Shown: positions 18,901 through 21,900 of the stretch, in pieces
Position numbering within the stretch: position 1 is the stretch's first letter
Layout: every line of letters begins with the position of its first letter
IMG/VR virus record: IMGVR_UViG_2706794671_000003
Length of the DNA: 25,268 nt
Origin: a virus
Taxonomy: Duplodnaviria; Heunggongvirae; Uroviricota; Caudoviricetes
Strand: one strand, 5' to 3'
Made by a program: the position numbers

Positions 18901-21900
18901 ATAGCCGCCAGTATCAATATCAAACCGGGCCATGATTATTACTTTTATATCCGCAGTGTGAACACCGTTGGCAAATCGGCATTCGTGGAGGCTGTTGGTC
19001 AGCCGAGTGATGATGCATCCGGTTATCTGGATTTTTTCAAAGGCGAGATAGGGAAAACCCATCTGGCTCAGGAGCTGTGGACGCAGATTGATAACGGTCA
19101 GCTTGCGCCTGACCTGGCTGAAATCAGGACGTCCATTACGGATGTCAGCAATGAAATCACGCAGACCGTCAATAAGAAACTGGAAGACCAGAGTGCGGCA
19201 ATTCAGCAGATACAGAAGGTTCAGGTTGATACAAATAATAACCTGAACAGCATGTGGGCTGTGAAGCTGCAGCAGATGCAGGACGGACGCCTTTATATCG
19301 CGGGTATTGGTGCCGGTATTGAGAACACCCCTGACGGCATGCAGAGTCAGGTGCTGCTGGCGGCGGACAGGATTGCGATGGTTAATCCTGCGAATGGCAA
19401 CACAAAACCGATGTTTGTTGGTCAGGGCGATCAGATATTCATGAACGACGTGTTCCTGAAACGCCTGACGGCCCCCACCATTACCAGCGGTGGAAATCCA
19501 TCGGCATTTTCCCTGACTCCGGACGGAAAGCTGACCGCTAAAAATGCGGATATCAGTGGCAGTGTGAATGCGAACGCCGGGACGCTCAACAATGTCACGG
19601 TAAATGAAAACTGTACGATTAAGGGCATGCTGGAGGCGACTCAGGTCAGAGGTGACTTCGTTAAAGCTGTATCCAAATCATTTCCGAAACAGGCTGGTAC
19701 GTGGGGTAACACGGAAACACCAAACGGGACGGTTACAGTCACCATAAGCGATGATCATAACTTTGACCGCCAGATTATTATTCCGCCCATTATTTTTAAC
19801 GGTATAGCGTATGACGATCCGGGGAGCGGAAATAACCCAGGAGGCACGCGATACACGGGTTATGGTTTTGAAGTTCGCAAAAACGGCGTATTAATCGCAT
19901 CCAGAGAAACTAAAGGTGCCATTCCCGGTAGTTACAGTGCAGTTATTGATATGCCTAGTGGTGGTGGTAGCGTCACTCTGGAGTTTAAGATTTTCCAGAA
20001 AGGCAATCAGGGGGCAGGCAATATCACCGACTGTACGGTGATTGTGACCAAAAAAGCGGCTTCCGGCATCAGTATTCGTTGAAATATTTATAACCCCAAT
20101 AAATGGCGTCAGGAATGACGCCTTTTTTATTGCAGAAAAGCGAGAGGTAATTATGCGTAAAGTTTGTGCAGCCATTTTGTCCGCAGCCATTTGCCTGGCC
20201 GTATCCGGTGCGCCTGCATGGGCGTCTGAACATCAGTCCACGCTGAGCGCGGGGTATCTTCATGCCCGGACCAACGTTCCCGGCAGTGATGATCTGAACG
20301 GGATTAACGTGAAATACCGTTATGAGTTTACGGATACGCTGGGGCTGGTGACGTCATTCAGCTATGCAGGAGACAAGAATCGCCAGCTGACCCGTTACAG
20401 CGATACCCGCTGGCATGAAGATTCCGTGCGTAACCGCTGGTTCAGCGTGATGGCGGGGCCGTCTGTGCGCGTGAATGAATGGTTCAGCGCGTATGCGATG
20501 GCGGGTGTGGCTTACAGCCGTGTGTCGACTTTTTCCGGGGATTATATCCGCGTAACTGACAATAAGGGGAAAACGCACGATGTGCTGACCGGAAGTGATG
20601 ACGGTCGCCACAGCAACACGTCTCTGGCGCACTGACGGTTTCATCGTGGGTGTCGGTTATAAATTCTGATTAGCCAGGTAACACAGTGTTATGACAGCCC
20701 GCCGGTTCAGGCGGGCTTTTTTGTGGGGTGAATATGGCAGTAAAGATTTCAGGTGTACTGAAAGACGGCACAGGAAAACCGGTACAGAACTGCACAATCC
20801 AGCTGAAAGCAAAACGTAACAGCACCACGGTGGTGGTGAACACGCTGGCCTCAGAAAATCCGGATGAAGCCGGGCGTTACAGCATGGACGTTGAGTACGG
20901 TCAGTACAGCGTTATTCTGTTGGTGGAAGGATTCCCGCCGTCACATGCCGGGACCATCACCGTGTATGAAGATTCCCGACCCGGTACGCTGAATGATTTT
21001 CTCGGTGCCATGACGGAGGATGATGCCCGTCCGGAGGCACTGCGCCGTTTTGAGCTGATGGTGGAAGAGGTGGCGCGTAACGCGTCCGCGGTGGCACAGA
21101 ACACGGCAGCCGCGAAGAAATCAGCCAGCGATGCCAGCACATCAGCCCGTGAGGCGGCAACCCATGCGACTGATGCTGCAGATTCAGCACGTGCAGCCAG
21201 CACGTCAGCCGGACAGGCCGCTTCGTCGGCTCAGTCAGCGTCTTCCAGCGCAGGAACGGCATCAACAAAGGCCACTGAAGCCTCAAAAAGTGCTGCCGCT
21301 GCAGAGTCCTCAAAAAGCGCGGCGGCTACCAGTGCCGGTGCGGCGAAAACGTTAGAAACGAATGCGGCAGCGTCACAACAATCAGCAGCCACTTCTGCAT
21401 CCACCGCGACCACGAAAGCGTCAGAAGCTGCCACCTCAGCCCGGGATGCGTCGGCTTCAAAAGAGGCGGCAAAATCATCAGAAACGAACGCATCATCAAG
21501 CGCCAGTAGCGCAGCTTCCTCGGCGACGGCGGCTGCAAATTCTGCGAAGGCGGCCAAAACGTCCGAGACGAACGCCAGGTCTTCTGAAACGGCAGCGGGA
21601 CAGAGTGCCTCAGCTGCGGCAGGCTCAAAAACAGCGGCTGCGTCGTCTGCCAGCGCCGCGTCAACAAGTGCCGGGCAGGCCTCAGCCAGTGCCACCGCCG
21701 CCGGAAAATCGGCAGAAAGCGCCGCATCATCCGCTTCAACAGCCACAACGAAGGCTGGCGAAGCCACTGAGCAGGCCACGGCAGCAGCGAGGTCAGCTTC
21801 CGCAGCGAAGACATCCGAAACGAACGCGAAAGCGTCGGAAACCCGTGCAGAATCCTCAAAAACGGCTGCCGCATCGTCCGCCAGTTNNNNNNNNNNNNNN

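Follow-up and report, generated by a model that had tools for sequence, protein, structure and literature searches.

Gene J of lambda-type phages encodes the tail-tip protein whose C-terminus sets host specificity (PMC3509688, PMC11101478). When such a gene follows lambda closely over most of its length and then departs from it, has the end of the protein diverged in place or been taken from another phage, and which receptor would it recognize? We address this question for J in IMG/VR record IMGVR_UViG_2706794671_000003, a caudoviral stretch of 25,268 nucleotides analyzed here in full and called the window below. The initial annotation had proposed that the final ~150 amino acids of this J form a divergent receptor-binding domain (RBD) obtained by mosaic exchange, with altered receptor specificity as the suggested consequence.

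Gene J lies within a complete lambda-type virion module

The gene order of the window is the usual nu1-A-W-B-C-D-E...H-M-L-K-I-J, making up a complete lambda-type virion module. Homologs of L, K and I precede J, and lom, stf and tfa lie downstream, as is expected of a lambda-type J. Positions 77-17925 of the window share 96.5% identity with lambda, whose gene names are the same, and 97.5% with phage Chlobot. The features of J that are needed first are as follows.

16540..20082, plus strand: gene J (tip attachment / central tail fiber protein), an open reading frame of 1180 codons, 99 of them masked
16540..18992, plus strand: lambda-like backbone of J (hub domains, FNIII-1 and FNIII-2), delimited by identity to lambda
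17926..18221, no strand: run of 296 N inside J, masking 99 codons

The J reading frame is open across all 3,247 visible nucleotides, the remaining 296 (17926..18221) being masked, and it ends in exactly the peptide quoted in the initial annotation; positions 19630..20082 comprise the final 150 codons of J and its stop codon. The Pfam families Ig_J, Ig_J_second, Phage_Tail_Tip and Ig_GpJ_C match the 3' half of the gene. We tested for the domain series of FNIII-1, FNIII-2, shaft and straight fiber, and C-terminal Ig-like RBD, and found PF24421, PF24489, PF09327 and PF12421 above their cutoffs and in this order.

Protein alignments were made with lambda J (NC_001416) and phage 434 J (OL657226). 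The described closeness of J to lambda gpJ over most of its length is borne out: 449/462 residues are identical in the N-terminal hub part (aa 1-462) and 260/270 at aa 562-831, such that about 96-97% of the residues up to aa ~820 are shared with lambda gpJ. At the DNA level, the backbone is about 95% identical to both lambda and 434.

The run of N in J exceeds its counterparts in lambda, 434 and phi458 by 45 nt. J has 1165 aa in phi458 and in an Escherichia coli MB56 prophage versus 1180 in the window, and the remainder is collinear. Either the runs of N in J and in stf (see below) have mask lengths that are not the true lengths, or they hide insertions.

The C-terminal domain of J departs from lambda in sequence and composition

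We looked for high identity of the C-terminus to lambda J itself and found the reverse: over the last 150 aa (19630..20082) only 55/155 aligned residues are identical (35%), with 47.5% identity at the DNA level. This amounts to ~238 mismatches in 453 nt, where about 22 would be expected at the ~5% divergence of the backbone. Over the slightly longer stretch of J aa 1021-1180, 61/149 residues match lambda. The domain differs from lambda by insertions or deletions after lambda residues 1011, 1043, 1078 and 1099 and by a deletion of residues 1109-1114.

The reported AT-richness of this DNA is likewise real. GC content is 0.477 in 19630..20082 versus 0.58-0.59 in the J backbone; ranked among all 453-nt windows of the 25-kb stretch, the segment stands at the 8th percentile, and it is near the minimum within J. 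GC at third codon positions (GC3) is 0.456 in the RBD versus 0.68-0.72 in the backbone. The RBD of phage 434 has the same low GC content as that of the window (0.479), whereas the RBD of lambda is at 0.546.

Despite this divergence in sequence, the domain belongs to a recognizable family. PF12421, the profile for 'Tip attachment protein J, C-terminal receptor binding domain', covers J aa ~1044-1179 over the whole profile length with 90.3 bits against a cutoff of 26.2. In phmmer searches, solved chains of lambda J (8XCJ, 8IYK) align over the whole of the last 200 aa, with E values of 1e-46 to 1e-47. The fold family is settled because of these matches to PF12421 and to solved lambda J. A single-sequence AlphaFold2 prediction of J aa 961-1180 was all-beta but unreliable (mean pLDDT 49.4) and was not used; in any case, a monomer model cannot reveal the receptor.

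The best-scoring solved chain for the last 200 aa was 'A8 gpJ 713' (PDB 9WCA, 9WCB), which matched end to end at E = 4.7e-56. This chain is clearly of another RBD type, its identity being well below the 95% seen with phage 434, and among the solved chains matched by phmmer there was none of a 434-type RBD. A literature search found no publication on A8 gpJ (PDB 9WCA) or on the A8 receptor.

The distal part of J is a mosaic of interchangeable modules

Between the backbone and the C-terminus, J falls into three segments with abrupt edges. The domain names used for shaft and straight fiber come from cryo-EM work on lambda (PMC11101478).

18993..19431, plus strand: module B, alpha-helical shaft and top of the central straight fiber, a phi458-type allele, delimited by DNA identity and a 28-aa (84-nt) insertion
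19432..19588, plus strand: conserved linker C, lower central straight fiber, with few mismatches to lambda and 434
19589..20082, plus strand: module D, Ig-like RBD of phage 434 (h434) type, assigned by amino acid identity and Pfam PF12421

There are zero mismatches to lambda or 434 at 18900-18992, dense mismatches from 18993 to 19431, and then a linker whose DNA agrees with lambda and 434 at about 91% of positions and with phi458 and MB56 at 99%. Dense mismatches to lambda resume in a sharp step at ~19589-19620. The breakpoints at 18993, 19431 and ~19589 are thus sharp, and they are flanked by near-identical DNA. At the protein level the linker region (aa 961-1020) retains 55/60 residues of lambda. 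The linker likely serves as a site of homologous recombination between the two variable modules.

Module B accounts for the second divergent patch that had been described at ~19030..19330. The patch is real, but it is wider than that description, spanning 18993..19431, and it is a separate shaft module outside the RBD. In aa 832-960, 49/101 aligned residues are identical to lambda, and the 28 extra residues, which sit at lambda aa 835-838, are absent from both lambda and 434. The DNA of 19034-19420 is 48.6% identical to both lambda and 434, but phi458 and the E. coli MB56 prophage match it at 100%. In total, 67 phage records match 19000-19450, among them phage 21 (96.7%), cdtI (96.5%), Ayreon (98.4%) and many gut isolates.

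The two variable modules assort independently among phages: the same RBD recurs on more than one J backbone, and some phages with module B have a 434-type RBD whereas others do not. Phage 434 itself combines a lambda-type shaft with its own RBD. The long shaft is present in many 'Lambda_ev' phages, in at least one case (Lambda_ev058) together with an RBD that is not of 434 type (40% aa identity). The combination found in the window, a long shaft with a 434-type RBD, recurs in phi458, ev099, PhiR34_1, cdtI, Ayreon and the E. coli MB56 prophage. The J genes of this group are 95-98% identical to that of the window over their full-length DNA, and they show only allelic differences from it; lom is intact in those genomes.

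This arrangement is what has been described for natural J genes at large. An analysis of 1,207 J homologs identified a specificity region (lambda aa 960-1132) that recombines as an independent module, with lineage-defining indels at lambda 1012, 1048-49, 1077-78 and 1107 (Maddamsetti 2018, PMC6646904). The module boundary in the window, at aa ~1017 (lambda ~974), falls inside this region, and its indels lie at or near all four sites. Sharp breakpoints and the presence of the same module on different backbones, the marks of such a module in that study, are both found here. The phylogeny of the specificity region is decoupled from that of the rest of J, and the window is one more instance, with no substantive difference.

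A peptide of lambda J, residues 902-933, is reported to trigger the Gifsy-1 HepS abortive-infection nuclease. It corresponds to aa 945-976 of the window J (19372..19467), where the key residues Q922 and F924 are kept as Q965 and F967; the N-terminal half of the peptide falls in divergent module B.

The receptor-binding domain is the phage 434 allele

Comparison of the domain with J proteins of known receptor gave a match. The last 150 aa are identical to those of phage 434 J, reported to be of OmpC type, at 143/150 positions (95%), gap-free and with 95.4% DNA identity; over the whole of module D, 151/160 residues agree. With the J gene of the classical host-range hybrid, lambda h434 imm21, the RBD shares 95.1% identity, and its protein is 99.3% identical to that of phage Evi. 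Length and indel pattern relative to lambda are those of the 434 and lambda h434 allele (OL657226, OM418627), as is the low GC content. What sets the window apart from 434 is the shaft, which is lambda-like in 434 and a different module with 28 extra residues in the window. The initial annotation had not recognized this classical allele.

We assigned the RBD to the 434-type class on the basis of at least 90% aa identity over the whole domain, without gaps. That the class is a natural one is seen in a translated search of 50,697 phage records, in which 242 matched the RBD. Identities were bimodal: 74 records had at least 90%, 168 had 35-43% (lambda itself 35.5%), and none lay between 43% and 90%. 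J RBDs therefore form discrete allele classes, and that of the window falls in the 434 class. The same type is encoded in 2,113 of 5,426 complete E. coli genomes (about 39%), nearly always on the chromosome, i.e. in prophages, which ranks it among the most frequent J alleles of E. coli prophages.

Within the class, dN/dS of the RBD is 0.08-0.15 (against 434, phi458 and MB56), similar to the backbone. These values indicate purifying selection and thus a functional, conserved domain, and they rule out diversifying selection inside the 434-type RBD.

Together these results bear on whether, without any exchange of modules, a lambda-like ancestral domain could have turned into the present one in place, through point mutations that accumulated under diversifying selection. 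Receptor use of lambda J is known to shift by point mutations in this very region (PMC6646904, PMC11336670), which speaks for such an origin. It would, however, have to accommodate a fall in DNA identity to lambda from ~95% to ~48% within about 30 nt, a GC3 shift of ~0.25, and the presence of a 95-99% identical sequence in 434 and in 73 further phages whose backbones vary. With zero intermediates between 43% and 90% identity among the 242 phage records and a dN/dS of ~0.1 within the allele class, divergence in place is already contradicted, and we give it next to no credence. The sharp breakpoints, the GC3 shift, the occurrence of the module on other backbones and the bimodal identities instead establish exchange rather than drift, as the initial annotation had proposed for the receptor module. 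The 434-type RBD would have entered by homologous recombination in 19432..19588 and, on the 3' side, at the conserved J-lom junction.

OmpC is the most likely receptor

Our overall reading, which we consider very probable, is that distal J consists of interchangeable modules on a lambda backbone and that its last ~160 aa are the 434 (h434) RBD allele, gained by recombination and most likely binding OmpC. For the receptor, this reading draws on genetic work with 434: when the 434 J gene is put into lambda, the receptor becomes OmpC, as used by 434 (PMC3509688, PMC11101478). AlphaFold3 models have also docked the 434 fiber as a trimer on trimeric OmpC (PMC12502783, 2025). By analogy with these systems, the receptor of the window RBD is most likely OmpC, not LamB, and the literature on the exchanged module thus supports the altered specificity that had been suggested. 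Against lambda J ~980-1132, the LamB-binding RBD, the domain shows 35% aa identity and five loop indels, and it falls outside that type.

In sequenced lambda h434 imm21 (OM418627), 434-type DNA begins at J nt ~2120 and also takes in lom, stf and tfa. Since 434 DNA extends that far, we ruled out lambda h434 as clean proof that the RBD alone sets the receptor. The crossover from lambda to 434 in this hybrid (OM418627, 540..3953) lies inside J at nt 2115-2133 (aa ~705-711); of the informative sites in its J, 80 are lambda-type before the crossover and 293 are 434-type after it, and one matches neither parent.

How binding might open the tail can be pictured from lambda, whose opening mechanism (PMC11101478) is the basis of the analogy. 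The lambda RBD, solved on LamB (PDB 8XCJ, 8XCK, 8IYK; PMC11101478), belongs to the same Pfam family PF12421, is homologous over the full domain, and occupies the same tip position on an otherwise 96-97% identical J, and its Ig-like fold and trigger mechanism are presumably shared with the window. It differs in sharing only 35% aa identity, in five indels at the published lineage-defining sites, and in its reported receptor class, which is LamB, as against OmpC for the 434 type. We infer that in the window J, the trimeric central fiber ends in three RBDs whose distal loops would enter an outer-membrane porin, itself a trimer. Porin binding would spread the bases of the RBDs and thereby twist the straight fiber; the twist would in turn flip the helical shaft, release the FNIII arms and open the tail tube.

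The RBD of the window is not identical to that of 434, and its few differences are not evenly spread. Of the 7 differences from 434 in the last 150 aa, 6 fall in patches at aa 1047-1062 and 1151-1158. Across the 434 class, amino acid polymorphisms take the form of two two-state patches, S/A-FPK-QA/KV (aa 1047-1052) and K-I/V-F-Q/H-KGNQ-G/R (aa 1151-1158), which align with the host-range hot spots of lambda (lambda 1004-1017 and 1099-1104). All four combinations of the two patches occur among four alleles (window, 434, phi458 and MB56), and recombination therefore reaches inside the RBD.

The clustering of 6/7 differences in patches aligned with host-range hot spots raises the alternative that the domain is of 434 type but that this allele recognizes something other than K-12 OmpC, such as a host-specific OmpC variant, OmpF or another porin, since its substitutions lie in receptor-contact loops. 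Phage 21 gains the use of OmpC through one mutation in J (PMC11336670), and RBDs at only 35-40% identity also use OmpC (phi330; PMC12502783), so that class and receptor do not stand in a one-to-one relation. Both states of each patch are common, however, and occur in all four combinations, which looks like a neutral or mildly tuning polymorphism, and the domain is 95% identical to 434 and under purifying selection. We regard this alternative as unlikely, though it is the most serious of those considered here. A more specific version, which we think a little less likely again, is that the haplotype S1047/Q1051/A1052/N1062 plus I1151/Q1153/G1158, together with the 28-residue-longer shaft, might recognize a different porin or a host-lineage-specific OmpC variant instead of K-12 OmpC. 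If so, alleles of a single class would naturally switch specificity through the two polymorphic patches. For the ECOR prophage records PV3405xx (mEp332, PhiR34_1 and others), a search found no publication with receptor data.

With OmpC as the most likely receptor, J of this prophage is best read as a 434-type, presumably OmpC-directed host-specificity protein rather than a LamB type, a distinction that matters for annotation and for predicting strain range. Lambda-type J proteins with the 434/h434 RBD module are themselves already known, and the combination seen here recurs in many phages and in thousands of E. coli genomes. It has been established for decades that phages exchange the J specificity region and that 434 has a host-range allele with OmpC as receptor; the window adds nothing further to this knowledge.

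The genes flanking J

Downstream of J, the window contains the following features.

20105..20128, plus strand: intrinsic terminator 3' of J, a hairpin (20105..20122) and T-tract (-16.3 kcal/mol, z = -5.2)
20153..20635, plus strand: truncated lom, with an 83-bp deletion, encoding 160 aa rather than 199, identified by alignment and Pfam Ail_Lom
20696..20717: second terminator, after lom
20728..23855, plus strand: stf, side tail fiber and second host-recognition determinant, with an N-terminal PF08400 and a C-terminal Collar domain
23855..24436, plus strand: tfa, tail fiber assembly (Pfam Caudo_TAP PF02413, E = 4.6e-44)

Phage 434 has an annotated terminator at the equivalent place after J. The stem of the hairpin reads GGCGTC...GACGCC in the window versus GGCACC...GGTGCC in phi458, MB56 and 434, compensatory changes by which the hairpin is kept. 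No promoter-like sites were found around the J-lom junction, nor any tRNA genes in the window.

Relative to the lom genes of phi458, MB56 and 434 (600 nt, 199 aa), that of the window has lost its 83 bp between two direct CTGGCG repeats, with the junction near 20623 and a frameshift as the outcome. Its product matches positions 1-159 of the 199 in the Ail_Lom profile, and the gene is probably a pseudogene. This damage, next to a J and an stf that are partly masked, could be taken to mean that J belongs to a decaying, non-functional prophage and that its C-terminal domain has no current role in host recognition. Lom is dispensable for growth of lambda, and decay is hard to reconcile with the unbroken reading frame in the 3,247 visible nucleotides of J or with a whole nu1-to-tfa head and tail set that is 96-97% identical to viable phages. 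We therefore judge decay very improbable and retain the reading of J as a probably functional, 434-type host-specificity protein.

The side tail fiber gene is interrupted by a second run of N (21888..22153), and its reading frame differs before and after the run; stf is about 53 nt longer than in MB56. The C-terminal 252 aa of Stf (stf part 22572..23855) are 70% identical to lambda Stf (orf-314), with His-rich repeats that are arranged differently. Stf of Ur-lambda is reported to target OmpC (PMC12312913), and the host range of the window phage would therefore depend on both fibers. The J and Stf fibers of this phage might target the same porin.

At the other end of the window, positions 1..1543 are also low in GC, with 453-nt windows that start at 1-1090 having GC of at most 0.477. 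The gene nu1 (1336..1881) is downstream of this left end, and similarity to lambda-like phages starts only at base ~77. The left end is consistent with a prophage or a circularly permuted record, with the right end of the late region adjoining cos.
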